The notes under the pieces: generated by a model
The model's database searches: none
What the model saw: only the letters and a program-made list of their open reading frames with translations
Told to the model about the DNA's origin: nothing
Made by a program: the position numbers and the translations under genes
Assembly: GCA_903909815.1 (NCBI GenBank)
Contig: CAIVXG010000223.1
Span: 3,488-35,487, forward strand
Direction of reading: 5' to 3'
Length of the DNA: 32,000 nucleotides
From: an uncultured beta proteobacterium
Lineage (GTDB): Bacteria; Pseudomonadota; Gammaproteobacteria; Burkholderiales; Burkholderiaceae_C
Shown here: positions 345 to 29,395 of the stretch, piece after piece
Position numbering within the stretch: the stretch's first letter is position 1
How the letters are laid out: every line of letters begins with the position of its first letter

Positions 345-423
345 TCCGGGACGTTTTGGATTCGTTAGCGCGAGTTGCCCGAATCCGGCCAGATTCCGCA
401 CACGGCCCTTGAACCGGCGGGCC

Positions 424-508
424 GTCATTGCGAGCGGAGCGCGGCAATCCATGCTGGCATACACGTGGTGCTCGTGGATTGCAGCGTCGCTGCGCTCCTC
501 GCAATGAC
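424..508. repeat. REP/MITE-like imperfect palindrome (copy 1)
   Basis: Left arm gtcattgcgagcggagcgcggcaatcca (424-451), 23-nt loop, right arm tggattgcagcgtcgctgcgctcctcgcaatgac (475-508). It lies between the convergent scoB and kinase genes. A second copy at 29396-29462 has its arms in the opposite order. Confidence 0.7.
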
Positions 509-548
509 GATGCCGGTGGACCGAGCGACGACGCCTCTTTCCGAAACG

Positions 549-3005: not shown

Positions 3006-3008
3006 CGA

Positions 3009-5500: not shown

Positions 5501-6558
5501 TTGAGCTCGCGTTGTTGAAGTTGAGAACGTGATGCGGAGGCATCTTCGTCGGCGAAGCGCGGCAGTTTGTCGGCGTCGACGAGCTGCACCGGCAGCTCGC
5601 CCGCAGCGAGTCGGCGTGTCACGTCCAGATGCACCCCGCGCACTTCCAGCGCCTTGAGCAGCTCCGGGAACTCGGTGCACCACCGGTCCTCCGCCAGATG
5701 GTCGAGCACGCTGCGCTCGTTCTGACCCTGGCTCACGGCGCGAACCACGTTGAAGTTGACGGAACGGGTCTGCGCGTTCACCCGCATGCGCACCATGTAG
5801 TTGCCCCAGGATTGCCGGCGAAAATGCACCACACCGCCTTCGACGAAGAGCGTGCTACCGACCTCTTCCACCTGGTAGCCCAGGTCTTTGAGGGACTGCT
5901 CGACGATGGTGGCGGTGGCTCGTTGCACCTGCTGCTGTTGCAGGTCTTCGATGTGGGCCTGGATGCGGGAGCGCAGTTCCGTGGCGAGCAGCTCGGCGCG
6001 TTCACCCGGCAGCGTGCCGTCGAGTTCTTGCGCCACGCTCTGGATGTGTTGGGGAATGTCACCCAGTTCATGGATGCGCAGCAACAGCCGCTGCGCGAGT
6101 GAGCGCGGCGCCGCGTCGGGCACGGGTAGCTGGACCGCCTGCTCGGCAAACTGGTCGCTCTGGCGCGCGGCTTCAGTCAACAGAATCGCGCGCAGCTCGG
6201 CACTCAGTGCTTGCAGCGCCTGCACGTAAGCCACCAGCGCCTCGGTTTCCTCCGTGTCTGGCGGGGCCGGGCGAGTGGCGCGCACCTGCTCGGCGACGCC
6301 CAGGCGCTCAGCCAGGCCCTGGAGTTGATCGAAACCGACTTCCGCGCTCCTGGCCTCTTGCCCCAGCGCCGTGCGCCCCTGCAACTGCGCGGCGCTTTGC
6401 GCGGCGGTGCGGATTTCGTTCTGTTGCTGATGTTGCTCGTGTAAGGTGGCGGCATGGGCATAGCCCTGATACACCGCTTGCGCCGCGCGAATCGCTGCGG
6501 CAGAGAGCAGCGCAGCGATTGGGCTGGCCGTAATGACGACTGTGATGGGACCACTCAT
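5497..6558 (-). CDS. Hypothetical protein: N-terminal hydrophobic segment, long Q/A/E/L-rich coiled-coil region, C-terminal globular domain (353 aa)
   Basis: Long ORF with host-like codon composition. The ATG at 6558 (MSGPITVVITASPIAALL...) is the first start that does not overlap the divergent SRAP gene. The stop overlaps the AAA+ start. No recognisable catalytic motif and no obvious SD, so the start is uncertain (in-frame TTG at 6588). Confidence 0.6.
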   Translation of the reverse strand: MSGPITVVITASPIAALLSAAAIRAAQAVYQGYAHAATLHEQHQQQNEIRTAAQSAAQLQGRTALGQEARSAEVGFDQLQGLAERLGVAEQVRATRPAPPDTEETEALVAYVQALQALSAELRAILLTEAARQSDQFAEQAVQLPVPDAAPRSLAQRLLLRIHELGDIPQHIQSVAQELDGTLPGERAELLATELRSRIQAHIEDLQQQQVQRATATIVEQSLKDLGYQVEEVGSTLFVEGGVVHFRRQSWGNYMVRMRVNAQTRSVNFNVVRAVSQGQNERSVLDHLAEDRWCTEFPELLKALEVRGVHLDVTRRLAAGELPVQLVDADKLPRFADEDASASRSQLQQRELK

Positions 6559-6609
6559 GGGGCGAAGTATCGCAGGTAGATGCGCCAATGTTTGAGTAAG
6601 ATTCCATCC

Positions 6610-7248
6610 ATGTGCTCTCACTACCAGGCCCTCAAACTTTACGAACTGGGTTGGAAACGCTTTGGCGTGGCGGCGCCGGCGGCGCTTGTGAGGGCCGAGC
6701 TCTGGCCTGGCTACGTGGGCGCCTTCGTGCGCAGACATGCCCACGCCGACCTTGGCGATGCCGCAGTCCCCGAGCGCGAGGTCCTGGCCGGCGTGTTCGG
6801 ATTGCTGCCGCGCTGGTCCAAGGACCTGAAGTTGGCGCGACACACGTTCAACGCCAGGTCGGAAACGGTATCCGAGAAACCCAGCTTTCGGGACGCCTGG
6901 CGCAAGGGTCAGCGCTGCATCATCCCCGCTCAGGCGATATACGAACCCGACTGGCGTACCGGCAAGGCGGTGCCGACACGGATCTCGCGCGCTGATGGCG
7001 CACCCATGGGGCTGGCGGGCTTGTGGGACTGGTCAGCGCTGGGAGGCGGGACACTCAGCTACACCATGCTCACGATCAACGCCGACGAGCATCCCTTCAT
7101 GAATCAGTTTCACAGGCCGCAGGAGGAAAAACGGTCCGTGGTCATCCTGCCCGATGCCGCTTACGCCGACTGGCTTGATGCCGCGGTCGCAGATCAGGGC
7201 GGCCTTTTGCAACTTTACCCGGCGCATGCATTGACGGCATCGACCTAG
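6610..7248 (+). CDS. SOS-response-associated peptidase (SRAP/YedK-type abasic-site processing protein), 212 aa
   Basis: Start set at MCSHYQ... so that the catalytic Cys is residue 2, as in the SRAP family. NARSETVSEKPSFRDAWRKGQRCIIPA parallels YedK NARVETAATSRMFKPLWQHGRAICFA. A conserved H..R.P motif (FHRPQEEKRSVVIL) lies in the C-terminal third. Confidence 0.8.
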   Translation: MCSHYQALKLYELGWKRFGVAAPAALVRAELWPGYVGAFVRRHAHADLGDAAVPEREVLAGVFGLLPRWSKDLKLARHTFNARSETVSEKPSFRDAWRKGQRCIIPAQAIYEPDWRTGKAVPTRISRADGAPMGLAGLWDWSALGGGTLSYTMLTINADEHPFMNQFHRPQEEKRSVVILPDAAYADWLDAAVADQGGLLQLYPAHALTAST

Positions 7249-7496
7249 GTCGTTCAGGCGGTTGCGCCCACAATACAGACCCGCTGCGGATGCCCGAACT
7301 GGAACGGGAGTGGCAATGACCCGGCATCGGGAGTTCGTCAGAATTCCTGAGCACACTGGAATGCCCCCCGCTGAACTACCGACATAAGTAGCTCAGACTT
7401 GCTAACCCCGATGGGGGAAGGGAGATGCCATAACTCCCGCAAAGTGCGCTATGGTGTATCCATGTCGGAAACGTTTCGGTTCGTGGGACCTTGCAT

Positions 7497-9227
7497 ATGA
7501 AATTACGCCATCGAATTTACTTCATCATTGCTTCTGCACTCATCGGCATCGTGCTGACCAGTGCGTTTGGCTTATATGCCCTGCGTCAGAATCTCTATGA
7601 GGGCCGCCAAGAAGAGATACATAAGGTGGCGCTCTTAAGTCGCGGCGTGCTCGAACGTTACCAGCAACTGGAGGTCAGCGGCAAGCTCAGCCGAGAGGAA
7701 GCACAAAGCCAAGCAAAGGACGCGCTGTCGGGTCTGCGCCATGACGACGACTACATCTTTGTCAGGACCATGGACAATCAGATGCTGGTCCATGCGGACC
7801 AAAGCCGCATTGGAAAGGTCGACAAGGGCTCAAAGACGGCTGATGGGCGGATGACGTCCGACATTTATGCGGATGAACTCGCAAAATCCGATCGCGTCTT
7901 CATGATTGCTTATGTTGCCCGCCCAGGCGACGCGGCCAAGACGCCTGTACCTAAACTGCTAGGCGCGATTCGATTTGAACCTTGGAACTGGGTCGTCGGA
8001 AATGGCGTATTTATTGACGATCTTGATGCGGCGTTTATCTCGTACGCCTACAAGTACCTTGTTCTTGGTGGCGGGATATTGATTCTCATGGGCGCGTTGG
8101 GGGCGCTGCTCTTTCGCTCTATACAACGGCAATTGGGCGGAGAGCCGCAGTACGCCTCGGACGTGGTCAATTTGATCGCGTCCGGCGACCTGAGTATGGC
8201 CATCGAAGTCACTGGTCCTTCAACCAGCCTTCTCGCTTCCATGGAGAGCATGAGGGCCAGTCTGTCCGATGTGGTTGGCAAGGTTCGACAGGGGTCGCAA
8301 GGCGTTGCTACCGCGAGCGCCGAAATTGCCCAGGGTAACCATGACCTGAGTGCCCGCACAGAGAGTCAGGCCAGTGCACTGGAACAGACGGCCTCTTCGA
8401 TGGAGGAACTGTCCGCAACCGTGAAGCACAACGCGGATAGCGCCCGTCAGGCCAACCAACTGGCAATGAGTGCCTCCACCGTGGCGATGCAGGGTGGCCA
8501 GGTAGTGGGGCAGGTAGTCGCTACCATGAAGGGCATCAGCGAGTCGAGCAGAAGAATCTCCGACATCATCAGCGTCATTGACGGAATTGCATTTCAGACG
8601 AACATTCTGGCACTGAATGCGGCTGTTGAAGCCGCGCGCGCCGGCGAACAAGGGCGTGGCTTTGCCGTGGTGGCGTCCGAGGTCCGATCATTGGCTGGGC
8701 GAAGCGCCGAAGCTGCCAAGGAAATCAAGACTTTGATTAACGCCAGTGTGGAGCGTGTTGAGCAAGGTGCCACTTTGGTCGACCAGGCAGGCACGACAAT
8801 GGCCGCGGTAGTCAGTTCCATCAAACGCGTGACTGACTTGATGGGTGAAATCAGTGCCGCCAGCAGCGAGCAGGCCGCAGGTATGTCCCAGGTGGGAGAA
8901 GCCGTACATCAGATGGACCAGGTCACACAGCAAAATGCCGCGCTGGTCGAGGAGATGGCTGCAGCAGCGAGCAGCCTCAATTTGCAAGCTCAAGAGCTAG
9001 TCGGCACGGTGGCCGTATTCAAACTGGTTCAGGGTAAAGACGGATATGCGCGCACAAGCCATCATGCTGCCGCTCCTGTGCGCCACAGCCCTATTTCGCA
9101 AAGCGCCCCAACAAGGAAAGCGGGACCCAAGTTCAACCCCAATGCGAAGTCCACAGCCTTGAGTGCACCCAAGGTTGTAAAAGACGCGACGACAAAGTCG
9201 GACGGCGATGATTGGGAGAGTTTCTGA
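7497..9227 (+). CDS. Methyl-accepting chemotaxis protein (N-terminal TM, Cache-like periplasmic domain, HAMP, MA domain, C-terminal DWESF pentapeptide), 576 aa
   Basis: Signalling hairpin [37 protein letters not shown]. Methylation-helix heptads. Second [22 protein letters not shown] followed by a HAMP-like segment. ATG at 7497; the ORF track start at 7491 is a TTG. Confidence 0.9.
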
Positions 9228-9539
9228 CTGCTCACGGTTTCTCTTTGGGCCAAAGCAAGGAATCGCGACGCAAACTGGTCTTCCTGGTGCCGGCACACGT
9301 GATCGGCTGGAACTACTGCACTTGAGCCCGCCAGTTAAAAAAATGGCGGTGTTGTCGGGCGAACGACTGCTGCCAAGTTCCAGGGATCGCCGACTGCCAA
9401 AACCGGGCAGCCCTGCCAATAACTGCTGTGGAGAACGTGGCAGATGTTTCTGGGTTGCATCGAATGTCTCTTACGTTGCACTGGAGGCGGTAGCGGTCAG
9501 TGCAGGGGCATTACCGCATGGGCCGCAACATGCTTCATC

Positions 9540-9572
9540 AAAAAAATGCCTGCTAGCAATTAAGTAGCAGGC
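9540..9572 (-). terminator. Rho-independent terminator, probably the native tRNA-Lys terminator displaced by island insertion
   Basis: Stem gcctgcta (9548-9555) / tagcaggc (9565-9572) with a 9-nt loop. A seven-A run on the plus strand at 9540-9546 gives a U-tract on the minus strand. It lies 26 nt downstream of the tRNA 3' remnant. Confidence 0.55.
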
Positions 9573-9597
9573 TTCCTAGTTCCCATGGGGCTTGTGG

Positions 9598-9642
9598 TGG
9601 TTGGTCCTGACAGATTCGAACTGTCGACCTACGGATTAAGAG
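9598..9642 (-). repeat. Displaced 3' portion of tRNA-Lys (anticodon loop to CCA); left att repeat of the island
   Basis: 9603-9642 is identical over 40 nt to 15826-15865. The match extends to 9596/15819 with one mismatch (9602 T vs 15825 G), which would put A instead of C at acceptor position 72. Confidence 0.85.
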
Positions 9643-9913
9643 AAAAGATAATAACAAAATAACGTTTAAAAACAACAAGTTACATAACATCGTATTCGAT
9701 GTGTAGCAAAATGTGTAAGCAAAATGAAAAAATAGCTGCACGCGTAGCGCTAAATCGCCCACCATATCTTCCACGACTGTCTGCACGAATTTAGCACGCC
9801 TGTAGCTCAGCCGAATTCAGTTCATTTACGTGCAAGAAATTCGATCAATTTCTCGCACGTAACCGCACCCTTTCGTCCATCGTCGTCCTCTCTCTGCAAA
9901 CAGCACGAAAAAT

Positions 9914-10165
9914 TTACACGTATGGCTTTATCGTTGTTCCAGCAGCAGTCTTGCGTATCTGCGCCATTTTCTGTCTCGACTGCCGCATCTTTAGCTGCTC
10001 TGCATTTGTGTCCGCTTGTGCTTTCATCTGCTTTGCACGGTTCTTTGCCGCTTTAGCGTTGTCCTTTAAGCGTTTCACACGCTGCTCAGCAGCACCAAAA
10101 TTCTGTATCTCTTCAAGTGTCATATTGGCCCCCATAAACTTATATTTATCGGGGCCGTTTGTCAC
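9914..10165 (-). CDS. Small basic K/A/Q-rich coiled-coil protein (up to 83 aa; start uncertain)
   Basis: The GTG at 10165 overlaps the upstream stop (GTGA). Alternative ATGs lie at 10135 and 10123, the latter preceded by GGGGG. No recognisable domain. Confidence 0.5.
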   Translation of the reverse strand: MTNGPDKYKFMGANMTLEEIQNFGAAEQRVKRLKDNAKAAKNRAKQMKAQADTNAEQLKMRQSRQKMAQIRKTAAGTTIKPYV

Positions 10166-10608
10166 TTTTTCTTCTTAGCAAAGCCCGCACGCAATGCACC
10201 GCTGGCCTGCTCAATCTGTGCATCAAGTTCACCAGCAAGCACCGCTTCCTTTACAACTTCAAGCGTTGCTACAAGATCATCCATTCCGCTCAGCTCCACT
10301 GCATTCTTGCCCTTAGAAATTTCAATCGTCTTTGCTCCATAACGCAGCGCAAGAACAGTTTTTCCATTTGCCTGTGTAAACCACCACGGTTTAACTCTCT
10401 TGGCCTGTTCTACCTGCTTGCGCTCCCCAGTCTCTTTATTGGTAACAAATTTCACCCTTTTTCCTGCATAAATCACACCAGCGTTAGCTGCTTTCGCAAA
10501 CGCAATCTGGGTCTCAATATGCGCAGTCAGCTTGTTTCTACGCAGAACCTCGGGAGATTTCCGGTCAGCTTGCACGCTCACTAGCTTTAGTTTCAAAAGT
10601 GCTGTCAT
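10162..10608 (-). CDS. Hypothetical island protein (148 aa from ATG 10608; 150 aa from ATG 10614)
   Basis: Clean ORF in AT-rich DNA. GGAG lies 8 nt upstream of ATG 10608 but only 2 nt from 10614. Sequence MTALLKLKLVSVQ...KPWWFTQANGKTVLALRYG...; family not recognised with confidence. Confidence 0.7.
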   Translation of the reverse strand: MTALLKLKLVSVQADRKSPEVLRRNKLTAHIETQIAFAKAANAGVIYAGKRVKFVTNKETGERKQVEQAKRVKPWWFTQANGKTVLALRYGAKTIEISKGKNAVELSGMDDLVATLEVVKEAVLAGELDAQIEQASGALRAGFAKKKK

Positions 10609-10693
10609 TTTCATTGCTCCTAAGTTGATAGCAATGCAAGTATGTAGTCACTTTAACAAGTTGTCTACCGAATAACAGTATTTTTGGGGAATT

Positions 10694-11272
10694 TTGTGGA
10701 AAAGCATAAATACCTTTATGCAATCCACATTTTCTCTACAATCTAGCGCAATAACTAACTTTTTGCAGCAGCACAGCGAACACGTCACGAATTTAGCTGT
10801 AGCACACACTTGCTACAAGACTTACGAGCAAGATAAGGCCGGTATGCAGCACATCGTTGCACGTGCAAAGCGTGACTGCACAATATTCCGAAACAATCTA
10901 AACACTAAGCTTTACGGTGGCAACAAAAGTCGTCGCAGGCCGTTACTTTATCAGCCGCTAATACTTGCAACACTAGAAGGATCGTTAGTCAATACTGATC
11001 GCGATTTAACGCTGCACTATAACTTTGCAATCGGTAACTTGCCGAAAGGACTTGCAGACGCAGAATTTCAGTGCATTTTTAGGGAGTGTTGGGTTGTAAA
11101 CGCAAAGCAGCGCGACAACATCTGGCACGAAAATGTTGCTGGAGATAGTGAAGCTGCAAAAGGCTGGATTGGTTACAGCTTAAAAGAAATGCAGAGCAAG
11201 GGCAACATTGAGGCCTGGGACTTTGTAAACACACAGATTCCGTATCAAGCATTTAGTGCAGACTTAAGTTAG
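10694..11272 (+). CDS. Hypothetical island protein (192 aa from TTG 10694; 184 aa from ATG 10718)
   Basis: Only long ORF in this AT-rich stretch. Cys/His/Trp-containing globular composition. No confident motif. Confidence 0.6.
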   Translation: MWKSINTFMQSTFSLQSSAITNFLQQHSEHVTNLAVAHTCYKTYEQDKAGMQHIVARAKRDCTIFRNNLNTKLYGGNKSRRRPLLYQPLILATLEGSLVNTDRDLTLHYNFAIGNLPKGLADAEFQCIFRECWVVNAKQRDNIWHENVAGDSEAAKGWIGYSLKEMQSKGNIEAWDFVNTQIPYQAFSADLS

Positions 11273-11615
11273 CACTGAATTGGGGTCTGAAGGCTGCGCT
11301 ATACGGATAGCGTAGTCCCGGCAGCTATGGTGAAACAATTGTGTAGAAGAGCTAGATGTTCCCTAGAAAGCAACACAAAGCCCAGCAACGCGCGAACAAG
11401 ACGACGCGAATGCTTGGGTGGCTGAAGGGATAAAAACGCTTAGACAGAGGTAAGAAGTTGGCCTCTTATACACCAAATTTAGAGTAACTGAATAAAAATT
11501 AATAAAGATTGTCAAAAAGATTGATATAGTATTTTTGAGCATCGCGAATCGAGGCCGAGGGACGGTGCTTCTACAGCAGAGTGTTTCCATCAACCGCACA
11601 ATTTTAGGACTCTTA

Positions 11616-12284
11616 ATGAAAACTTTATCACTAAGCGCAATTTTACTTGTTACAGCATCTCTTGTGGCATGTGGCGGGGGAGGTGGCGGAACGACAGCAG
11701 TAATTCCGACTTACTCAGCGGATGCTGCAACTACAAAACTATTGGCAGCTGGTGGCACTTTTACTGCGACTGCTGTAAGCGGAAGTGACACTTATACCTT
11801 GTCATTGTCGACAACGCCAGACGCGGATGCGACATTTGGAGGCACGACACGCAAAAAATCAACACAATCACTTACCATCAAGAAAAATGGTGTGCTTGCT
11901 GGAGTTAGCACATATGACAGTTACTACAGCGTAAATCCGTTAGTATCCTATGGGGCAGTCTTTTCGGATGGTACATACGGCGTTAGCACTGGTAGTTACG
12001 TAACACCAACTGCGGCAAAGGTTGGTGATTCCGGGGCAGCTGGAACGCAGGTAATATATACAAACTCTACTCTGGCCAGCATATTGTCAACTCAGACATC
12101 GACTTGGACAATGGAAGCTGATACTGCTACGACAGCGTTTTATTGCCTGAACAGTGTTATAAAAAATGCCTCAAATATCCAAACAAGCACTGGGTCTACT
12201 TGCTTTAAAATTGATTCAGGAAACAACGCAATAGGTTTACGAATTACCATTACAGTTTCAGGAACAACGCTGGTTTTTAGCTAA
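11616..12284 (+). CDS. Lipoprotein, Thr/Ser/Gly/Ala-rich, probably beta-rich (222 aa)
   Basis: MKTLSLSAILLVTASLVAC is a signal peptide with lipobox L-V-A-C, followed by a GGGGGG linker. AGGA lies 6 nt upstream of ATG 11616. The ORF track start at 11535 adds a non-signal leader. Confidence 0.8.
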   Translation: MKTLSLSAILLVTASLVACGGGGGGTTAVIPTYSADAATTKLLAAGGTFTATAVSGSDTYTLSLSTTPDADATFGGTTRKKSTQSLTIKKNGVLAGVSTYDSYYSVNPLVSYGAVFSDGTYGVSTGSYVTPTAAKVGDSGAAGTQVIYTNSTLASILSTQTSTWTMEADTATTAFYCLNSVIKNASNIQTSTGSTCFKIDSGNNAIGLRITITVSGTTLVFS

Positions 12285-12344
12285 ATTTTATCCTTAACGT
12301 ATTTGTTTCTTAGCTTGCTTGATAGGAAACTAAAGAAAATACAC

Positions 12345-12380
12345 AAGAGTCAACATCTGCGCTGCAAGCTGTTGACTCTT
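12345..12380 (+). terminator. Perfect 11-bp stem hairpin downstream of the lipoprotein gene (no U-tract)
   Basis: aagagtcaaca (12345-12355) / tgttgactctt (12370-12380) with a 14-nt loop, 60 nt after the stop at 12284. The following sequence is not T-rich, so intrinsic-terminator function is uncertain. Confidence 0.4.
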
Positions 12381-12484
12381 ATAGAAACCCGATAAACTGC
12401 CTGGACGATTTTTAGCGGTTGCTCTGACCATACATAAGAAAGCACACTGTAGATGTGTTTTTATTACATTATGGGAGAGCGAAA

Positions 12485-13057
12485 ATGAGTCAAGCTAAAA
12501 CGCTAACGGCGCAAGAACTGCGCAGGGTGCTGGACTACGTAGCAACGCGCAAGCACGCAGCGCGTAACAGGGCTATGCTGCTTGCTACGCACTTATCGGG
12601 GATGCGCGTAGGGGAGGTTGCAGCACTACGCATAAGCGACGTTCTTGATGCTGATGGGGGCATACGCAACGAAATACGTTTGGAAGCGGAACAGACAAAG
12701 GGCAGCAGCGGACGCGTTGTTTTTGTTAGCGAAAAACTGCGGAAAGAGCTTGCGAAATATCTTGCACTTTACTGCCCGGAAAATCACGAAGGCAAACTGT
12801 TTTACACGCAAAAACGTATGCGTGATGGATTTTCAGCCAACACGCTTTGCCAATTCTTCCATCATCTTTACAACGCAGTGGGAATTGCTGGCGCGAGCAG
12901 TCACAGCGGACGTAGGTCGTTTATAACAAATCTTGCCAGCAAAGGCGTTGGCGTGCGCGTGTTGATGGCTTTGGCGGGACATAAAAGCATCTCGACAACG
13001 CAAATCTACATCGACTGCAACGACAACCAGAAGCGTGCAGCGATTGAACTGATCTGA
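12485..13057 (+). CDS. Small catalytic-domain-only tyrosine recombinase, FimB/FimE-sized (190 aa)
   Basis: LTAQELRRVL...HAARNRAMLLATHLSGMRVGEVAALRISDV (Arg I region). SHSGRRSF (H-x-x-R). GHKSISTTQIY (His and the Tyr nucleophile). GGGAGAG lies 5 nt upstream of ATG 12485. Confidence 0.85.
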   Translation: MSQAKTLTAQELRRVLDYVATRKHAARNRAMLLATHLSGMRVGEVAALRISDVLDADGGIRNEIRLEAEQTKGSSGRVVFVSEKLRKELAKYLALYCPENHEGKLFYTQKRMRDGFSANTLCQFFHHLYNAVGIAGASSHSGRRSFITNLASKGVGVRVLMALAGHKSISTTQIYIDCNDNQKRAAIELI

Positions 13058-13059
13058 CG

Positions 13060-13311
13060 CTAAGACTTTTTAGGGCCTTGCTTGGTTGCAGCATTTTTTG
13101 CAGTTACTTTTACTGCAGCGGATGTGGCAGCTTTAGGGGTGCGCTTTTTTCTAGCCTTGATGACACTTTTTAGCTCAGTCTGAGTAAAACCGTATTCTTT
13201 AATCTGCGCTCTTACATCAGCTAGCGCAGTAGCACGACCAGTCTTTAACTCCTGTTTTAGTGCCTGTTCAAGCTTTGCAATTTGTTCCCGATACTCAGTA
13301 ACTTTGCTCAT
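13060..13311 (-). CDS. Truncated H-NS-like protein: H-NS-type N-terminal oligomerisation region plus a K/A-rich basic tail (83-84 aa)
   Basis: The pattern Y.EQIAKLEQALKQE...ALADVRAQIKEYGFTQTEL matches the N-terminal half of betaproteobacterial H-NS-like proteins as I recall them. The canonical C-terminal TW[ST]GRG DNA-binding motif is absent, replaced by KARKKRTPKAATSAAVKVTAKNAATKQGPKKS. AGGAG lies 6 nt upstream of ATG 13311 (3 nt from 13314). Confidence 0.55.
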   Translation of the reverse strand: MSKVTEYREQIAKLEQALKQELKTGRATALADVRAQIKEYGFTQTELKSVIKARKKRTPKAATSAAVKVTAKNAATKQGPKKS

Positions 13312-13344
13312 CATGGTCTCCTTTTTTGTTTGTATGAACGCGTG

Positions 13345-13373
13345 ATTTTTTCATATACATAGCGCGGTGTCAA
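13345..13373 (-). promoter_or_regulatory. Candidate sigma70 promoter of the H-NS-like gene
   Basis: The minus strand reads TTGACA (13373-13368), then a 17-nt spacer containing TGa (extended -10), then AAAAAT (13350-13345). It sits about 30 nt upstream of the start codon. Confidence 0.45.
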
Positions 13374-13383
13374 ATTTCCAGTC

Positions 13384-13453
13384 GACCGACCAAATCGAAT
13401 TTGGTTTGGTGGTTTGGTCGGTGGTTTGGTAGATTGAGCGGTAACTTGGTGGT
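13384..13453. repeat. Cluster of GGTTTGGT direct repeats with nested palindromes (iteron/operator-like)
   Basis: GGTTTGGT at 13403-13410, 13411-13418 and 13423-13430, with a degenerate copy at 13444-13453. Palindrome ccaaat-cga-atttgg at 13390-13404. gaccgaccaaa (13384-13394) is the inverted complement of tttggtcggt (13413-13422). Confidence 0.6.
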
Positions 13454-13561
13454 GTTGCACAGTTGAAGTGCAGGGTAAACGCGTGCTGGCACATGCTGGC
13501 GCTGTTTTACGCTAGACGAAAATAAAACGTGCTTAAACAGCACTAATAAGTTACGTCTGCA

Positions 13562-14215
13562 TCAGCGCCGTTTCTTCAACCAAGTTCGTAGCTTCATTGC
13601 AGTTTCAATAGCTGCCGCATCTTCTGCAGCATCAGCGGCAATCACCGGTTTAAGTGCTTCCAGTGCCATCTCAAGAGCCTCTTGTTTTATCGACCGCTTT
13701 GTCTGCAGTAGCTGCAACATTCCAGCACTTTGTTTGTCCATACTTCTGCTCGTAATAACTAACGGCATCGTCATCGGACCCGGGCCTAATTCGCTGCCAG
13801 CATCAAAGTCAAGTGGACGATCAAACCAGATGTGCAAATAACTGTCCATACTTGCCATTTCTTCAAGCCTCAGCAATGCCTTTTCAAATGCCGTGTCAGC
13901 CTTGTCACTCAATTTCTTTGCTACTCTCACGCCATCCTTTCCGCGCACTCCAGATCGTCTAAAACTACCGCTATATCCTTCCATTTTGTTGTAGATAAAC
14001 TGCGCCTTATGTAGTAACTCTTCATACTCAATTACTGCGCTAGGCTTGTCTTTAAAATACGCGCGTTGCTCAACCTGATCTTTCCAGCTACGTTGCATAT
14101 TTTCAAACTCTGCCGTAGTCAGTGCAGCCTTAATGTCTCGCAACGCAACATCTTTGCCGCTTTCAATAACACCAATCAATTCAGCAAGCCGTGTCTTTCG
14201 CTTTTCTTCTCGCAT
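13562..14215 (-). CDS. Hypothetical island protein immediately downstream of the integrase (217 aa)
   Basis: GAGG lies 7 nt upstream of ATG 14215, 51 nt after the integrase stop on the same strand. Charged helical composition. No recognisable motif. Confidence 0.7.
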   Translation of the reverse strand: MREEKRKTRLAELIGVIESGKDVALRDIKAALTTAEFENMQRSWKDQVEQRAYFKDKPSAVIEYEELLHKAQFIYNKMEGYSGSFRRSGVRGKDGVRVAKKLSDKADTAFEKALLRLEEMASMDSYLHIWFDRPLDFDAGSELGPGPMTMPLVITSRSMDKQSAGMLQLLQTKRSIKQEALEMALEALKPVIAADAAEDAAAIETAMKLRTWLKKRR

Positions 14216-14266
14216 ACGTAAACCTCGTTAAGTCAGTTTGCAAGTGCCGAAATATCATACACCATT

Positions 14267-15697
14267 TTATTCAGCTGCTTTTCTTTTTACAGTAGTTGGT
14301 ATTTTTTTCTTAGCAGTCTTTAGTTTCGGCATATAAGCCTGCTCGATCACGCTACCAGCCGAAATCAGTCTGCGTGTTTCATAGTTTCGTAGCTGCTCAA
14401 TTGCCTTAACAGCGTCAAGATGGCTGTAATGTTTTTCAATCATCACTACGCTAGTTCCCATCTGCTTCGCAAGCGTGTGTATTGCTACTTTATCGTGTGT
14501 CAGTGCCAGCGTTGCATACGTGTGTCGCAAGCTGTAAAAAACACGATCTTTACCAGTTTTAGGATCAACTAACAAGCTGTGCTCATCCAAAAAGCTTTCA
14601 AATAGGTTTTGAAAACTTGTTGGCTTGATTTTCGCTTTAGTTCTAAAAACATAGTCCTTATTAGACGCAACATTAATGCCGCTGAATGGATCGGTAAAGT
14701 TTCCTTCAACTCCGTAGTTTCGCTTAATTATTCTCGTCAGTGCCTTAACAGTCGGATTCATTCCGACAATAGTTCTTGCTCCAGTTTTTCCACTAACATC
14801 CAGCGTGCAGCTTCTGTTAAGCTCTGTTTTAACATACTCGGTCGGTTGTTGATCCGATGGTTCTTCGTTGAAATATTTTCCGGTGCTTATTTCTTCTGGT
14901 CTCATTGCATACTTTACTTGCGTCCATTTCAAGTCTAGTAGCTCTTTTCCCGGTCTTGCACCCGTATCTAGTAAAACCTCAACATAGTCCTTTAGCAATG
15001 CTCGTAATTCTTTGCTAGCATCATTACGCCCACGATCTATCCAGTTTTTAAACATTTCCAGCATTACGTGTATTTCAAACAACTCAAACGCTGGCCTTCT
15101 TACACTTTTCTTCCCACTGTTTTCTAGTTTAGGAATTTGTGAATCAGTTAAAAACCCACGTTTCCTGCCTTCGTCAAACACCTGCTTTAACGCAGCGTTG
15201 TGATTCAATATCGTGCTGTGTGTAGCAGTGGTCGTCTTGATCGCGGTGCTGTTCGGATATTTGGCCTTGCGCAGTTCGACTATTTTTGCGTCGCGCCAAG
15301 TGTCAAACTGCACAAGCAAGCCGTGGGTGATGCTTGTAATGCTGTGACTTCCAAAAAATGGAATAAAGTAGTTTGTGATCGCTGCTTTATAGTCCGTAAA
15401 CGCAGCCTTACCACGTCCGGCTGCAATTTCTTGGTCCATAGTTTGTATGGCCAGTGCTGCAACGTGCCGAAATTTGCGGGTGATGATCGGCAAGTTGTCG
15501 CGCTTGCGTATCTCGGCCGTAATCATCAACTCGTTCGCTATCGCTTTGGCTTTTTTTAGCTCGTGCTGCTTTGTCGTTGTCCGCTGCCAAAGCGTGTCCA
15601 CTTTGTAGCGACACTGCCAAATGTTGCTGTTTTCACGCCGATACAGAACAAGCTTGTTGTCCAAAAGCACGTGTGTCGTTGCAAGTTTTGCCGGCAT
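14267..15697 (-). CDS. int: Tyrosine-type site-specific integrase (476 aa from ATG 15697; GTG at 15703 also possible)
   Basis: LLDTGARPGKELLDL (Arg I), YSLRHTYATLAL (H-x-x-R), VVMIEKHYSHL (Tyr nucleophile). Lies next to and co-oriented with tRNA-Lys. Confidence 0.9.
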   Translation of the reverse strand: MPAKLATTHVLLDNKLVLYRRENSNIWQCRYKVDTLWQRTTTKQHELKKAKAIANELMITAEIRKRDNLPIITRKFRHVAALAIQTMDQEIAAGRGKAAFTDYKAAITNYFIPFFGSHSITSITHGLLVQFDTWRDAKIVELRKAKYPNSTAIKTTTATHSTILNHNAALKQVFDEGRKRGFLTDSQIPKLENSGKKSVRRPAFELFEIHVMLEMFKNWIDRGRNDASKELRALLKDYVEVLLDTGARPGKELLDLKWTQVKYAMRPEEISTGKYFNEEPSDQQPTEYVKTELNRSCTLDVSGKTGARTIVGMNPTVKALTRIIKRNYGVEGNFTDPFSGINVASNKDYVFRTKAKIKPTSFQNLFESFLDEHSLLVDPKTGKDRVFYSLRHTYATLALTHDKVAIHTLAKQMGTSVVMIEKHYSHLDAVKAIEQLRNYETRRLISAGSVIEQAYMPKLKTAKKKIPTTVKRKAAE

Positions 15698-15753
15698 TCG
15701 CACAATGTAAGCTCAATTGCAAGATGCTGCAATCTCTGTGCAAGCGGTGTGCA

Positions 15754-15786
15754 AACAAAAAAAGCAAGCACTTGTTAGTGCCTGCT
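15754..15786 (-). terminator. Island-borne terminator downstream of the reconstituted tRNA-Lys
   Basis: On the minus strand, stem agcaggcac / gtgcttgct (one G:U pair) with a 6-nt loop, followed by TTTTTTTGTTT. Confidence 0.5.
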
Positions 15787-15820
15787 TTCCTTGTAAGCGT
15801 TGCTACGCTTGCTTATGGGG

Positions 15821-15896
15821 TGGTGGGTCCTGACAGATTCGAACTGTCGACCTACGGATTAAGAGTCCGCTGCTCTACCAACTGAGCTAAGAACCC
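15821..15896 (-). tRNA. tRNA-Lys, anticodon CUU, CCA encoded (76 nt)
   Basis: The reverse complement reads GGGTTCTTAGCTCAGTTGGTAGAGCAGCGGACTCTTAATCCGTAGGTCGACAGTTCGAATCTGTCAGGACCCACCA. It folds with a 7-bp acceptor stem, D arm, anticodon stem GCGGA/TCCGT with loop CT-CTT-AA, and T arm GACAG/CTGTC with loop TTCGAAT. Confidence 0.9.
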
Positions 15897-15906
15897 ACAG
15901 AGCCGA

Positions 15907-15912
15907 ATTATA
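15907..15912 (-). promoter_or_regulatory. Candidate -10 box (TATAAT) of the tRNA-Lys promoter
   Basis: The minus strand reads TATAAT followed by 10 nt and then the mature tRNA 5' end. The -35 is weak (TGATCA-like) and overlaps the hxlR-like stop codon. Confidence 0.35.
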
Positions 15913-15933
15913 TATCGAGCCGATGCGGGCTGA

Positions 15934-16251
15934 TCAGCCCGGCGGTTTTTTTTTGGCCTGATTGGCTTCCCATTTGATGGCGAAGGGGCCGATCTCCTGC
16001 ATGCGCTTGACGAGGTCGGTCCCTTGGGATGTCAAGGTATAGCCGGTGCTTCCGTGGGTGACGAGCAAGGCGGTGCGCAATTCCTTGAGACGCGTGTTCA
16101 GGGTGTTGGGGGTGATGCTGCCAACGCTGTCTTGCAGCAGCCGAAAAGTCTGTGGATGTCCGTCTTTCAGAGCCCACAAGACACGGATAGCGTAACGCGA
16201 TTCCAGCAGGGCCAACAACTGATTGATAGCCGCCTGATCTTTTGAACTCAT
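15934..16251 (-). CDS. HxlR-family winged-helix transcriptional regulator (105 aa)
   Basis: LLESRYAIRVLWALKDGHPQTFRLLQDSVGSITPNTLNTRLKELRTALLV is the typical HxlR-type wHTH pattern, and the size fits. Confidence 0.8.
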   Translation of the reverse strand: MSSKDQAAINQLLALLESRYAIRVLWALKDGHPQTFRLLQDSVGSITPNTLNTRLKELRTALLVTHGSTGYTLTSQGTDLVKRMQEIGPFAIKWEANQAKKKPPG

Positions 16252-16418
16252 GGGAACGAACTCCTGGATGCCTCGTTGGCGGCCGGGTAGGAAGCGCTAC
16301 CTGAGCCTGTTTTTTGCTGTCGAATATAGCGCAGTTTCGCCGCTGCTACGACTTTTATAGCTGAGCCTTGGGCTTGCCTTGGGGACCACGACGATTCAAG
16401 AAGTCTGATTCTTTCAGT

Positions 16419-17528
16419 TTATCGGTGGTCCCGAAGGCCGCGTGCGGCCTGCAGCACGAGCTTTGGGCCCTGGTAGATCAGTCCGGTGTAGATCTGCACC
16501 ACATCGGCCCCCGCGCGAACCTTCTCCAGCGCGTCCTGCGCACTCATGATGCCACCCACGCCGATGATGGGAAACCCCGCGCCCAGCGCCGCTCGCAGCT
16601 GGCGTATGACGCGGTTGCTGGCCTCGCGCACGGGTGCGCCCGACAGGCCACCGGCTTCTTCCGCGTGGGGCAAGCCCTGCACCGCTGCGCGCGACAAAGT
16701 GGTGTTGGTTGCGACCACGCCCCAGAGCTGGTTCGGTTGTCCCGCAGCGTCGAGTCCGTAGCGTTTCAGGGTCGCGGCAATGACCTCGACCTGACCCTGG
16801 TCCAGGTCCGGCGCGATCTTGACAAAGATGGGCACGCGCCGCGGCACCAGGCCGCCCAAGGCATCGCGCTTGCCATGCAGCTGCGCCAAGTGCTGGCGTC
16901 TTTGGTCGATGGCGCCGATCAGTGCATCGAGCGCGGCGTCGCCTTGCAGTTCGCGCAGGTTCTTGGTGTTGGGGCTGGAGATGTTGACGGTGACGTAGTC
17001 GGCATACGCATACACGCCGTCCAGGCAGGCCAGATAATCGTCGATGGCGCGCTCGATCGGCGTGGCGGCGTTCTTGCCGATGTTCAGTCCGAGCAGCATG
17101 GGCTGCGCCGGATTCTTCTTGCGAAAGCGGGCGGTCTGCACGTTGGCGATGAACGCATCCAGGCCCTCGTTGTTGAATCCCAATCGGTTGATCAGCGCCT
17201 GCGCCTGCGGCAGGCGAAACATGCGTGGCTTCGGGTTGCCGCTTTGTGCCTTGGGTGTGACCGTTCCCACCTCCACAAAGCCAAATCCCATGGCGGCGAA
17301 GGCGTCGATGCAATGCGCGTTCTTGTCCAGACCGGCCGCCAGGCCGACGCGGTTCGGAAAATTTAGACCGGCGAGTTGCACCGGATCGTGCACGCGCTCC
17401 TGACAAAATGCCCATTCCAGCGCCGTGCCTTGGGCGCGCTGCAAGGAGGCAAGTGTGAGTTCGTGCGTGGTCTCGGGGTCGAGTCCGAACAGGAAGGGTC
17501 GGGCCAGGGCGTAGGGCAGCAAAGACAT
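16419..17528 (-). CDS. pyrD: Dihydroorotate dehydrogenase (quinone), class 2
   Basis: From ATG 17528: [26 protein letters not shown]...[14 protein letters not shown]...[12 protein letters not shown]...NISSPNT...GVGGI. The ORF track start at 17582 adds 18 non-conserved residues. Confidence 0.9.
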
Positions 17529-17573
17529 TGGATAATTCCGTGATAACTCCATGGATTGTCCCAGATGAAAAGC

Positions 17574-18245
17574 ATGACTCAAGACGAACTCAAAACCCTG
17601 GTCGGTCAGGCCGCGCTGCAGTATGTGGTGCCCGGAGAAATTGTGGGCGTGGGCACGGGCTCAACCGTGAACAAGTTCATCGATGCGCTGGCCACGATCA
17701 AACACAGCATCGTGGGCGCAGTCTCCAGTTCCACTGCCTCCACGGCGCGCCTGCAGGCGCTGGGCATTCCCGTGTTCGACGCGAACGAGGTGGGCGAACT
17801 GGCCGTGTACATTGACGGCGCGGACGAGATCGATGGCCGTGGCTACATGATCAAGGGCGGAGGCGCGGCACTCACGCGCGAAAAGATCGTGGCGGCTCAG
17901 TCGCGGCAATTTGTCTGTATTGCGGACGAGTCCAAGCTGGTTCAGACACTGGGTGCTTTTGCGCTACCGGTGGAAGTGATACCCATGGCCACGCAGCGCC
18001 TGATGCGTCAGTTTGCAGCAATGGGCGGAGTCGCCAGCGTGCGCATGAAGGACGGCGCGCCGTTGGTCACCGACAACGGTCAGCACCTGTTGGATGTGAC
18101 GGGTCTGTGCATCAGCGAACCGCTGGCGTTCGAGAGCCAGGTGAACCAGTGGCCGGGCGTGGTGACGGTGGGTGTGTTTGCCCATCAAAAGGCCCAGGTC
18201 TGTCTGCTGGGAACGGCCAGCGGCGTCAGGGTGATCGCCTACTAG
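17574..18245 (+). CDS. rpiA: Ribose-5-phosphate isomerase A
   Basis: [18 protein letters not shown]...[15 protein letters not shown]...YIDGADEID...[14 protein letters not shown] is collinear with E. coli RpiA, which also starts MTQDELK. An alternative ATG lies at 17565. Confidence 0.9.
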
Positions 18246-18883
18246 AACTGGATGCCGGCGGGGTTGCTGGGATTGGGGCCCGGCGGTGGCGGTGTGGGCA
18301 CCGATGCGGGGTCGGGCACCGGGGTCTGATCCTGCGGCTTGGAAGTCCCTGAGCTCAATGGCGTTGCCGGTGCATTGCGGTAGTTGGGTGGCAACTGTGA
18401 GTTCGCTGGGTAGTCGGCGATGCTTAGGTATTGATTCCAATTGATTTCGGAATACCCTCTGAGGTGCTGGCCTCCGATCGTCAGAAGCGGTAGTCCGGTA
18501 TCTCCAGAGAGGCGCTGTAGGGCATTGATATCCGCTTGGGTGGAAATGGTTTTTTCTGTGAAAGGAATGCCCCTACCCAGAAGCAGCGATCGCCCGGCGC
18601 TGCACGGCTCGCCGCAACTTGTTCCCGTGTACAGCGTCACGGGAAATGCCATCGCCACCTGGCGCAGCAGGTACGGCAGTGCGGCGAAGTTGTCGTCGGC
18701 ACTGTTGATGCCACCGACGGCGGCGTTTCGGCCGCGGGTTGCAGCGGCCACCGGCGCTGTGTCCGAGTAGGTGACACGGCCGTTGGAGTCGACGCTGCGA
18801 AAAATGGATTGTGCCCAGCCGGCGCTGGTCGTCATCAGCAGCGATGCCGTGAATGCCATAAGATGGCTGGGCGTGAGCTTCAT
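18242..18883 (-). CDS. Secreted DUF4124-like / glutaredoxin-fold protein with a Pro-rich C-terminal tail (213 aa)
   Basis: Signal peptide [33 protein letters not shown] motif. [30 protein letters not shown] resembles a glutaredoxin-like fold with a C-x3-C motif. Confidence 0.6.
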
Positions 18884-18912
18884 GTGTACTCCTTAGACCT
18901 CACTCAAGTGCA

Positions 18913-20943: not shown

Positions 20944-21791
20944 GATTTGGCGCGCTCGGCCGCCTCCAGGGTGTTGACCAGCAGCATCGTGATGGTCATG
21001 GGTCCCACGCCGCCCGGCACCGGGGTGATGTAGCCCGCCACTTGCTTCACGCCGGCGAAGTCCACGTCGCCGCAGAGCTTGCCTTCGTCGTTGCGGTTCA
21101 TCCCCACATCGAGCACGACTGCGCCGGGCTTGACCATGTCGCCTGTGAGCACGTTGCGTTTGCCCACGGCGGCCACGATCACGTCGGCCAGCAAGGTGTG
21201 GGCTTTCAGGTCGCGCGTGCCGCTGTGGCACACGGTGACGGTGGCGTTCTTTTGCAGCAGCATCAGCGCCATCGGTTTGCCCACGATGTTGCTGCGCCCG
21301 ATCACCACGGCATGCTTGCCGCGCAGATCGCAGCCGATGGATTCGAGCATCTTCATGCAGCCATAGGGCGTGCACGGCAAAAATCCGGGCGCGCCGGTCA
21401 TCAAGGCCCCCGCGCTGGCGATGTGGAAACCGTCCACGTCCTTGGCGGGCGAGATCGCCGCGATCACTTTTTGGGCGTCGATGTGCGCGGGCACAGGCAA
21501 CTGCACCAGGATTCCGTGGATGGCGTCATCGACGTTCAGGGCGGCGATGCGCTGCAGCAGTTCAGCCTCGCCCAAAGTGGCCGGATAGTGCTCCAGCACC
21601 GAGTGCAGGCCCGCATCTGCGCAGGCCTTGACCTTGTTGCGCACGTAGACCTGGCTGGCCGGGTTTTCGCCCACCTGAATCACGGCCAGTCCGGGCGTGA
21701 TGCCACGCTCCTTGAGGGCGGCGGTGCGCTGGGCGACCTGTGCGCGAAGTTCGCGCGAGAGTGCGTTTCCGTCGATGAGTTGTGCGGTCAT
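20940..21791 (-). CDS. folD: Bifunctional methylenetetrahydrofolate dehydrogenase/cyclohydrolase
   Basis: [12 protein letters not shown]...[20 protein letters not shown]...LVQLPVP...[14 protein letters not shown]...[10 protein letters not shown]. The stop overlaps the prlC start as ATGA (20940-20943). Confidence 0.9.
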
Positions 21792-21807
21792 GATGTTGCA
21801 GTTCAAG

Positions 21808-21839
21808 AAAAAAAGCCCGCGAGTCCTGGGACCACGGGC
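21808..21839 (-). terminator. Candidate intrinsic terminator after the response-regulator gene
   Basis: On the minus strand GCCCG..GGTCC / GGAC..CGGGC forms an imperfect hairpin followed by TTTTTTT (plus-strand A-run 21808-21814). It ends only about 17 nt upstream of the folD start. Confidence 0.45.
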
Positions 21840-21864
21840 GACAAAAAAACAGTGCGGCTCGGGT

Positions 21865-25049: not shown

Positions 25050-25289
25050 GGCAGCTGCATTTTGCTACGCAATGGCGTCGCCACCTGTCTTTCTAAAAAA
25101 CCATAATATGAAATCAATACGCACCATTTGAAATGTTGTAAAAATGTGCGACACTACGCTACCTTGCGCACGTTGTGGGCGGGTATCACCAGTGTTTGTC
25201 GGGCATGGCCCTCAAACCCACTTTCATGTTTCGGCGGCGCGGCGCCACGGGGTATGAAAGTTCTTTCACGTCAAAACGAGGAGACAGGC

Positions 25290-29385: not shown

Positions 29386-29395
29386 CTTCCTCGTC

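Follow-up and report, generated by a model that had tools for sequence, protein, structure and literature searches.

The stretch of DNA analyzed here, 32,000 nt from contig CAIVXG010000223.1 of an uncultured beta proteobacterium (hereafter, the window), very probably carries an integrated mobile island that is inserted in a tRNA-Lys(CUU) gene and belongs to a conserved family. This is a family of compact elements with a five-gene core, formed by a tyrosine integrase, an HUH-superfamily Rep-like protein, a DUF6641 protein, a small lysine-rich protein and a short tyrosine recombinase (sRec). An original prediction, made from the sequence alone, had described at this place a site-specific anticodon-loop island without replication genes, with a single recombinase and possibly with defense or exclusion cargo; the site-specific island stood up to the analysis whereas the other three elements of that interpretation did not. 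Coordinates of the features are collected in Table 1.

Integration Site and Limits of the Island

ARAGORN detected a single tRNA gene in the window. This gene, tRNA-Lys(ctt), has its anticodon at position 34 and a fully paired acceptor stem (G1-C72), and the Rfam match to the tRNA family reached 73.9 bits. The 3′ part of this gene is included in one copy of a direct repeat of 50 nt (96% identity), whose two copies are 6,223 nt apart and which is perfect over 40 nt (9603-9642 and 15826-15865), the latter figure reproducing the one previously given. A 32-nt piece of the repeat occurred exactly twice in the window as compared with none expected (100 shuffles). The right edge of the repeat, at 15865, corresponds to tRNA position 32, the first base of the anticodon loop, as had been proposed, and the repeat runs from there through the CCA end; past this edge identity ends sharply (T at 15866 vs. 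A at 9643). The two mismatches between copies were located at tRNA position 72 (T at 9602 vs. G at 15825) and 3 nt past the CCA end. The distal copy contains a displaced 3′ fragment of the tRNA, comprising its last 45 nt (positions 32-76; 9598-9642, minus strand), and according to the standard integration model positions 32-76 of the integrase-side copy would have been supplied by the island. ARAGORN and the repeat search agreed, therefore, with the earlier description of an island bounded by a regenerated tRNA and a displaced 3′ fragment.

The repeat copies enclose 6,173 bp and the excisable unit measures 6,223 bp; the size of 6.26 kb first reported includes both copies. The GC content was 0.448 inside the island (9643-15815), vs. 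0.623 to its left (1-9592) and 0.626 to its right (15897-32000). The GC drop formerly indicated was real, although its extent (from 68 to 40%) had been overstated and is of about 63 to 45%. Eight open reading frames (ORFs) were counted in the island, the same number as before, and all of them are intact.

As in the definition of tDNA islands used by Islander, an intact tRNA gene and a 3′ fragment in the same orientation stand at opposite ends of the interval, and a tyrosine integrase lies within it, adjoining the regenerated tRNA. Recombination between attP and attB in a tRNA gene classically yields this arrangement. The anticodon loop is indeed a recognized class of insertion point, as originally said, but not a notable one: an anticodon-centered attP is present in 2,083 of 3,919 Islander islands (PMC4383910), which makes it the commonest class. 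A hairpin followed by a U-run begins 25 nt beyond the displaced tRNA fragment and is probably the original terminator of the tRNA gene, left at the far end of the island; it was missed by the terminator scan because its loop is longer than 8 nt. Promoter and terminator scans of the window gave results at chance level, and the Rfam scan for non-coding RNA found nothing besides the tRNA.

The Integrase and Its Relatives

The gene of the large integrase starts 118 nt downstream of the tRNA gene, on the same strand and pointing into the island. Its 478-aa product presented no match to PF00589 in Pfam and was matched by PHROG 1 (integrase) alone, and a search of PDB sequences with a profile of 24 members of the integrase family retrieved no relative. 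Residues R250, K306, R393, and Y426 were invariant in the family. A weak local alignment to sRec, of low confidence, placed R393 at the Arg-II position, and Y390 and T417 at the positions of the catalytic histidines (in the contexts Y390-S-L-R393 and G-T417-S, respectively); a Tyr and a Thr in place of histidines may be the reason why Pfam misses this protein. The enzyme would perform both integration and excision of the island, crossing over in the anticodon loop or close to it.

More than 1,500 homologues of the integrase were found, the best one outside the source population being 66% identical. A scan of one genome per species yielded 79 integrase loci, mostly from freshwater Betaproteobacteria (Polynucleobacter, Limnohabitans, Methylophilaceae, Rhodoferax, and Hydrogenophaga). 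In 22 loci ARAGORN detected a tRNA-Met(CAT), tRNA-Lys(TTT) or tRNA-Lys(CTT) gene, mostly 100-200 nt upstream of the integrase and on the same strand. Five loci (L017, L028, L055, L057, and L065) contained islands of 4.3-10.3 kb that were delimited by exact repeats of 45-56 nt, with tRNA position 31 or 32 as their first base; in L067 a shorter repeat of 27 nt started at tRNA position 32. The start of the repeats at position 31 or 32 in relatives indicated that the sublocation in the anticodon loop is a trait of the family. Tandem arrays at one tRNA-Lys gene were found in L017 (4854-11305) and L067 (41-11100), with the order first island, tRNA-fragment repeat and second complete integrase, the first integrase of L017 being truncated. 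Repeats linked to tRNA genes and tandem arrays in relatives, taken together, constitute good indirect evidence, from genome sequences, that the integrase family is, or recently was, active.

Conserved Core and Remaining Genes of the Island

Core genes were counted in those loci, 36 in number, whose sequence extends for 7 kb or more downstream from the integrase. sRec was present in 24 of them and DUF6641 in 21, both genes appearing together in 20. The DUF6641 gene of the island is transcribed divergently from the gene of the Rep-like protein (orf192). Its homologues (n = 1,184; up to 82% identity) were almost entirely metagenomic, and some 40 of the 79 related loci contained the gene. The AlphaFold2 (AF2) model of the DUF6641 protein (pLDDT 80) found no match in the PDB with Foldseek (best E 0.15), and a search of the literature retrieved no mention of this family.

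The other small proteins of the island were less conserved or gave weaker matches. The product of orf83 is the positional equivalent of the protein cluster C3 of the relatives, with a weak phmmer match to a member of this cluster (E 5e-4). The 84-aa protein displayed weak matches to GapR_DNA-bd (E 0.0044), phrog_10171 (E 2.6e-6) and NF010247 (E 6e-4), and had no match in the PDB by sequence; to judge from these similarities, it may be a small nucleoid-associated or DNA-binding protein. The product of orf217 gave nothing in Pfam, PHROGs, NCBIfam, PADLOC, or PDB, and its homologues among the related loci were restricted to L061 and L065. L065 was the closest complete relative, a 6.5-kb island at tRNA-Lys(TTT) of Polynucleobacter aenigmaticus MWH-K35W1 with the same genes, including the homologue of orf217. 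When L065:10004-16400 was compared with 9914-14215 of the window, the whole block from the integrase to the far att site (DUF6641-Rep-cargo-sRec-(orf217)) was found inverted. Both orientations of this block relative to the integrase and att were common among family members; no inverted repeats able to drive such an inversion were found in the window. Related islands also carried accessory genes that are not present in the window (clusters C6, C7, C14, C16, C17, and C24), coding for a DUF6876 protein, an AAA ATPase similar to clamp loaders, a DnaQ-like exonuclease that bears a QSregVF_b tail, and several proteins of 270-285 aa that lacked matches.

Rep-Like Protein and Candidate Origin

The original prediction had recognized no replication or mobilization genes in the island. 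This was wrong, because orf192 codes for a homologue of the HUH rolling-circle initiators of the family REP_ORF2-G2P (PF23343). Three motifs stood out in the alignment of its cluster (TLTLK, EG...LHxHxAIG, and W..Y..KE), and four relatives (L021, L062, L067, and L080) passed the gathering score of PF23343, with 27.9-29.5 bits vs. a cut-off of 27.8. Comparison of the subclade of the window with the Pfam-positive subclade by means of hhalign gave a probability of 94.6% (E 6.9e-8) over an alignment spanning the three motifs. Residues E87, G88, H100, N102, Y153, K156, and E157 were invariant in 36 homologues of orf192 (35-66% identity), and motif III (Y153-x-x-K156-E157), which includes the catalytic tyrosine motif Y-x-x-K, was invariant across all subclades. 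The AF2 model of orf192 (pLDDT 94.6) was matched by dozens of viral proteins in BFVD, with probability of about 1.0 and E-values down to 1.8e-4; the only one with a name was a putative microvirus replication protein VP4. No match was obtained with the Rep profile in PDB sequences.

A hairpin with an 11-bp stem follows the Rep gene, 20 nt after its stop codon. It is a candidate for an origin or nick-site hairpin, or for a terminator, and a hairpin was found at the equivalent post-Rep position in most of 15 relatives. The subclade with a canonical HUH motif presented a CTTTAAT motif 40-70 nt past the rep gene. The 12-mer CTTTAATAGYGG was searched for in 176 loci and appeared exclusively in the post-Rep position (43-48 nt) of L028 and L057, besides the M13 origin; the sequence at L028:17305-17316 is identical, and that at L057:17868-17879 nearly identical, to the nick-site sequence of the M13 gene II protein, CTTTAATAGTGG. 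This protein (P2) nicks at TT/AA in the loop of that origin (PMC11765958).

Use of an HUH protein is also compatible with an integrative mobilizable element (IME), in which orf192 would be the relaxase, the hairpin after its gene would be oriT, and a co-resident conjugative element would give the pore. HUH Rep-like proteins act as relaxases in some elements, for example in the MOB_T family and in IMEs, and both the adjacency of the hairpin to the Rep gene and the lack of a replication helicase of its own in the island would fit such a role. However, no canonical relaxase, coupling protein or type IV secretion system (T4SS) gene was found among the island proteins in Pfam and NCBIfam, the Pfam match of the family is to phage replication initiators and not to relaxases, and among 72,556 plasmids there were only six integrase matches, all of them distant (23-34% identity). 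We consider this reading improbable; the same plasmid search led us to discard a plasmid origin.

Short Recombinase and Its Adjacent Inverted Repeat

Two tyrosine recombinases are present in the island, and not the integrase alone as was first thought. The second one, sRec, consists of a catalytic domain only, with the complete R-K-H-R-H-Y set; an alternative GTG start at 12455 would extend it to 200 aa. R41, K72, H140, R143, H166, and Y175 were invariant in 19 members of its family, and the nearest solved structures were XerC-like, XerA and XerD, the match being confined to their catalytic domains.

A 14-8-14 inverted repeat lies upstream of sRec, 19 nt to the right of the boundary of the cargo slot described below. 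Its arm is unique, with no other copy within two mismatches in the window, and no T-run follows it on the plus strand. About one-third of 33 relatives presented an inverted repeat (arms of 9-15 bp, spacers of 4-8 nt) 120-200 nt upstream of sRec, a fraction that rose to roughly half when spacers of up to 16 nt were allowed. The repeat is a candidate recombination or operator site of sRec. The layout of one gene with one adjacent core-type site, as in Cre/loxP and XerS/difSL, favors multimer resolution as its role and leads us to propose, tentatively and by analogy, that sRec may be a resolvase acting at its inverted repeat.

Other known arrangements of tyrosine recombinases were rejected. An invertible promoter or shufflon controlled by sRec was discarded in the window, where there was neither a second copy of the arm nor flanking inverted repeats. 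An integron was discarded as well: sRec matched the integron-integrase models over only some 60 C-terminal residues (51.6 vs. 265 and 31.9 vs. 435 bits), and a single inverted repeat borders the cargo slot, unlike integron cassettes, which are flanked by attC.

A Variable Cargo Slot

Look-ups of exact proteins revealed a sister island in the same metagenome series, with the same left chromosomal flank. Its backbone is shared with the island of the window (Rep 98% identical, sRec identical, and ORFs of 83 and 217 aa in the same positions) whereas the predicted lipoprotein of 222 aa is replaced by two proteins, one of 256 aa with a signal peptide and a Gln-rich middle part and one of 166 aa with a DUF4760 domain (PF15956, E 4.9e-10; L175:3-808 and L169:1305-2039). 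Homology with the sister island ended on the left at 11339 (95.6-96.5% identity in L169 and L170) and resumed on the right at 12315-12326 (99.2% identity in L175); an independent Logan contig, L001, also ended at 12326. These breaks delimit a slot between the Rep hairpin and the inverted repeat of sRec, which we regard as likely to be a defined cargo slot. As a consequence of this polymorphism, metagenome contigs break in and around the island. The simplest explanation is that the cargo would be swapped by homologous recombination in the conserved flanks; a site-specific mechanism of exchange is possible. A GTAGAA hexamer was found at both junctions of the slot in both variants, although it is too short to be separated from chance.

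The function of the cargo may be envelope modification or exclusion, which is a guess. The original prediction had suggested defense or exclusion cargo. On such a reading the selective value of the island would lie in anti-phage genes, for example that of the lipoprotein if it takes part in superinfection exclusion. Phage-encoded lipoproteins that block receptors are known and provide a precedent; in both variants the slot proteins are directed to the envelope (the lipoprotein in one, the signal-peptide protein together with DUF4760 in the other), and a candidate defense operon is adjacent, at 549-6558. However, when the eight island proteins and the sister cargo were searched with PADLOC (PADLOC-DB 2.0) no match better than E 5e-4 was obtained, the best ones being partial and implausible (AbiEi, E 5.6e-4, over 50 residues of sRec; PDC-S02, E 0.013), which does not rise above noise. 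The lipoprotein had no match in the PDB by sequence, and neither this protein nor those of orf217 and orf83 nor the 84-aa protein had a credible match in Pfam, PHROGs, NCBIfam, or PADLOC; the idea of a defense cargo is therefore unsupported and we hold it to be very unlikely, though conceivable for the slot genes directed to the envelope. It concerns the cargo only and is compatible with the explanation of the island that we favor (see below).

Occurrence at the Site and in Collections of Mobile Elements

All the contigs of the same population that span the integration site carried an island, and the others ended at it, as deduced from look-ups of the integrase, HxlR, and chemoreceptor proteins; the content of the island differed between coexisting strains. 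A pattern spanning the attB junction gave no matches in metagenome contigs. The 80 loci examined at pyrD relatives (71-76% identity) presented no synteny with tRNA-Lys or HxlR, being too distant.

A satellite or prophage was rejected in these collections. Neither the integrase nor DUF6641 had a tblastn match among 50,697 phage records, and a scan of 2.9 million IMG/VR contigs by integrase alignment retrieved no relative. PHROGs searches of the island proteins gave only integrase and families of unknown function. No genes for capsid size, packaging or helper interference, as in phage satellites of the PICI, P4-like, PLE, and PICMI types (terS, Sid/Psu/Cpm-like, or AlpA), were found for the eight proteins in Pfam, PHROGs, and NCBIfam, and no PICI-like or P4-like markers, a search for which the original prediction had proposed; no P-loop or Zot match, as would correspond to inovirus prophage genes, appeared among the island ORFs in Pfam and PHROGs.

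These results bear on the possibility of a helper-dependent satellite that excises, uses its G2P-type Rep to replicate and depends for packaging on a helper virus, the most plausible one being a filamentous phage, much as RS1 and TLC-phi depend on CTX-phi or fs phages. The Rep belongs to the G2P family of inoviruses and plectroviruses, relatives bear the 12-mer of the M13 nick site, the element has just 6.2 kb and no structural, packaging or conjugation genes in library searches, and there is one match to a PHROG of unknown function for DUF6641 and another for the 84-aa protein. Neither the integrase nor DUF6641 was, however, present in the phage records mentioned above, nor was the integrase in IMG/VR. 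None of the island genes was recognized as Zot-like, coat, terS or capsid-redirecting, nor was a packaging signal recognized, and there is no known helper. We therefore give little credence to a satellite.

Table 1. Features of the island and its borders (positions in the window)
Feature	Position	Strand	Basis or remarks
tRNA-terminator-like hairpin GCCUGCUA...UAGCAGGC followed by AUUUUUUU	9540-9572	-	Fold -19.6 kcal/mol, z -1.7
attR, distal att identity block	9593-9642		Direct repeat; bears C72→A
orf83, lysine-rich coiled-coil	9914-10165	-	Downstream of DUF6641; noise-level family matches
DUF6641 protein, 150 aa	10162-10614	-	PF20346 E 2e-11; phrog_31551 E 8.9e-28
orf192, HUH-superfamily Rep-like protein, 184 aa	10718-11272	+	Divergent homologue of inovirus-type G2P initiators
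11-bp-stem hairpin GGCTGCGCTAT-ACGG-ATAGCGTAGTC	11292-11317	+	RNA fold
Variable cargo slot	11340-12325	+	Homology break vs. sister variant
Predicted lipoprotein gene, 222 aa, MKTLSLSAILLVTASLVAC...	11616-12284	+	Sole slot gene in the window
14-8-14 inverted repeat AAGAGTCAACATCT-gcgctgca-AGCTGTTGACTCTT	12345-12380		105 nt upstream of the sRec ATG
sRec, short tyrosine recombinase, 190 aa from ATG	12485-13057	+	PF00589 E 1.6e-26; phrog_216 E 4.4e-40
84-aa coiled-coil protein, lysine-rich tail	13060-13314	-	Sub-threshold matches
orf217	13562-14215	-	Directly downstream of the integrase, same strand
Large tyrosine integrase, 478 aa (476 aa in public contig calls)	14267-15703	-	phrog_1 E 8.8e-26
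attL, integrase-proximal att identity block	15816-15865		Direct repeat, 0 expected by chance
Regenerated tRNA-Lys(CUU)	15821-15896	-	ARAGORN, Rfam; positions 1-31 chromosomal

Neighboring Genes

A gene for an HxlR-type regulator of 105 aa (15934-16251, minus strand) lies directly upstream of the tRNA gene, with its stop codon 38 nt from the tRNA 5′ end; a short hairpin with a T-run is located on the plus strand at 15926-15950. On the other side of the island, the region with SRAP and chemoreceptor genes (6580-9592) has a GC content of 57%, in contrast with 64% further left, and could be older acquired DNA beside the tRNA site. An older island underlying this low-GC chemoreceptor region was rejected, since no third tRNA fragment was found in the window. 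Farther to the left is the four-gene operon at 549-6558 (minus strand), a candidate defense cluster with host-like GC content. Its genes code for a Ser/Thr kinase of 818 aa (PADLOC models mad6 and PD-T4-6, E 1e-35 to 1e-33), a Fer4_12/radical-SAM-like protein, a ClpB-like AAA_2 ATPase (PADLOC PDC-M37B, E 1e-26; DolB, E 2e-14), and a protein of 353 aa lacking matches.

Discussion

We favor, as reasonably probable, a composite explanation for this locus, that of a tRNA-Lys island with Rep replication, resolution by sRec, and a cargo slot. The copy of tRNA positions 32-76 carried by the island regenerates the gene beside the integrase, and the displaced chromosomal 3′ fragment lies at the far end. 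The 478-aa integrase would excise the island as a circle, and nicking by Rep at the hairpin downstream of its own gene would start rolling-circle copying of this circle. Multimers would then be resolved by sRec at the adjacent 14-8-14 site, as by Cre at loxP and XerS at difSL, and the cargo lying between the Rep hairpin and the sRec site would be exchanged by recombination in the conserved flanks.

Several observations weigh against this explanation. As regards mobility, the contigs searched showed neither an excised circle nor an attP junction nor an empty attB, and no excisionase was recognized among the island proteins. The displaced fragment carries the change C72→A (at 9602), so that excision through the anticodon loop would leave the restored tRNA mismatched at G1.A72. 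It would follow that the island entered this site some time ago, and losing it might be costly or be selected against; the change may lock the island in. The large integrase would be devoid of both canonical histidines, if its weak alignment to sRec holds. With respect to replication, a homologue of orf192 was present in 11 of the 36 full-length relatives, about a third, and the orf192 of the window is itself below every Pfam threshold. Foldseek found nothing significant in the PDB for its model, the weak matches being HUH transposases (2ec2, 4er8, and 2xm3; E 0.08-0.3). Motif II of the window protein reads L-H100-Y-N102-F, that is, H-Y-N and not H-U-H, and the Ff-like nick sequence CTTTAATAGYGG is absent from the window. 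In view of this absence, the H-Y-N motif and the sub-threshold Pfam scores, rolling-circle activity of the copy in the window can only be inferred, and we regard Rep-driven rolling-circle replication of the island as evenly balanced between likely and unlikely. Finally, relatives do not share the sequence of the inverted repeat that precedes sRec, and this repeat could instead serve as an operator or terminate transcripts of the minus strand.

Some of these points would also be expected from a fixed and decaying remnant, no longer mobile and kept as passenger DNA or for its cargo: the tRNA left by excision would be spoiled by C72→A, an island is present in every site-spanning contig of the population, no excisionase was found, and motif II of Rep is non-canonical. 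The H-x-N form of this motif is, however, invariant in the 36 sequences of the window subclade, the other subclades presenting LHLH, LHIH, or LHWH; its invariance in 36 diverged homologues indicated that H-Y-N is a selected variant and not the result of decay. Other signs of decay are also missing, since all eight ORFs are intact, the catalytic set of sRec is complete, and the GC content is still 18 points under that of the host. In addition, the cargo varies between coexisting strains and relatives form tandem arrays. A remnant is accordingly unlikely in our opinion, and we retain the composite explanation of an island with its own Rep, resolvase, and cargo slot.

The anatomy of integration is no different from that of Islander-type tDNA islands (Williams 2002; Hudson et al. 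2015, PMC4383910), with which the island of the window shares a tyrosine integrase adjoining the regenerated tRNA, a displaced 3′ tRNA fragment at the far end, an identity block from the anticodon loop to the 3′ end and, in its relatives, tandem arrays. It differs from them in having an integrase too divergent for Pfam PF00589.

By definition (Hackl et al., bioRxiv 10.1101/2020.12.28.424599), cargo-carrying tycheposons have a site-specific integrase that lies beside a tRNA and points into the element; they contain cargo and may have, at one end or the other, a small replication module. The gene order of the island fits this definition, with the replication module opposite the integrase and the cargo between them, and both kinds of elements share aquatic hosts, some with streamlined genomes, and targets in tRNA-Met and tRNA-Lys. 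In Methylophilaceae, in fact, tRNA-Met and tRNA-Lys(ctt) are reported to harbor tycheposons and "additive" islands (PMC10872708). In contrast, tycheposon modules consist of primases, helicases, and polymerases, whereas that of the island is an HUH Rep; the island adds a second, short recombinase and DUF6641, and its 6.2 kb are at the small end of the range. The likeness is one of gene order as compared with the definition.

Actinobacterial integrative and conjugative elements (AICEs) of the pSAM2 type also integrate in tRNA genes; the segment of identity begins at the anticodon loop and reaches the 3′ end. After excision they replicate as rolling circles by means of an HUH Rep. AICEs are, however, conjugative elements of Actinobacteria with a Rep of another family, and their FtsK-like Tra, spread genes, and Xis were not found in the island.

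A G2P-type initiator, a small size, and chromosomal integration are shared with integrated filamentous phages and their satellites (Pf-type prophages at tRNA genes; RS1 and TLC-phi); the Ff-like nick sequence is shared with the relatives of the window island only. Unlike these phages, the island has no genes for coat, Zot-like assembly, or secretin proteins. RS1 and TLC-phi of Vibrio cholerae use the host XerCD at dif (PMC6744903, PMC4439123), in contrast with the integrase and tRNA site that the island has of its own.

The layout of sRec and its candidate site also has known parallels. Cre/loxP of P1, XerS/difSL, and XerH/difH consist of a recombinase gene adjoining one inverted-repeat site with a spacer of 6-8 bp. 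The candidate site of the window is 14-8-14 as compared with 13-8-13 in loxP. In contrast to Cre, XerS, and XerH, the 190 aa of sRec comprise only a catalytic domain, which is the size of the FimB/FimE invertases, and its site is not conserved in relatives.

On the whole, the mode of integration is ordinary whereas the core and the family are undescribed and widespread in freshwater bacteria. A bolder proposal, which we consider doubtful, is that these islands represent an undescribed class of tRNA-integrating rolling-circle replicons of 4-10 kb, abundant in freshwater Betaproteobacteria, that would bring together an integrase poor in histidines, a Rep of filamentous-phage type and its origin, a short recombinase resembling Cre/loxP and its site, and a swappable cassette slot. 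Such elements may be transferred in single-stranded form or as satellites of filamentous phages that have escaped notice.

From the enzymological point of view, two oddities are suggested by the alignments, an HUH initiator with an invariant H-x-N motif and a tyrosine integrase that apparently lacks both catalytic histidines. As regards ecology, the homologues of the integrase and DUF6641 are almost entirely metagenomic, and the named genomes that carry them belong mostly to freshwater Betaproteobacteria (Polynucleobacter, Limnohabitans, and Methylophilaceae). Gene flow in these bacteria is poorly explained, and the "additive" islands at their tRNA-Lys and tRNA-Met genes have been described without a mechanism (PMC10872708). 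A core made up of an integrase, an inovirus-type Rep, a short recombinase, and DUF6641, together with a slot that varies between strains, would provide a testable vehicle for such gene flow.

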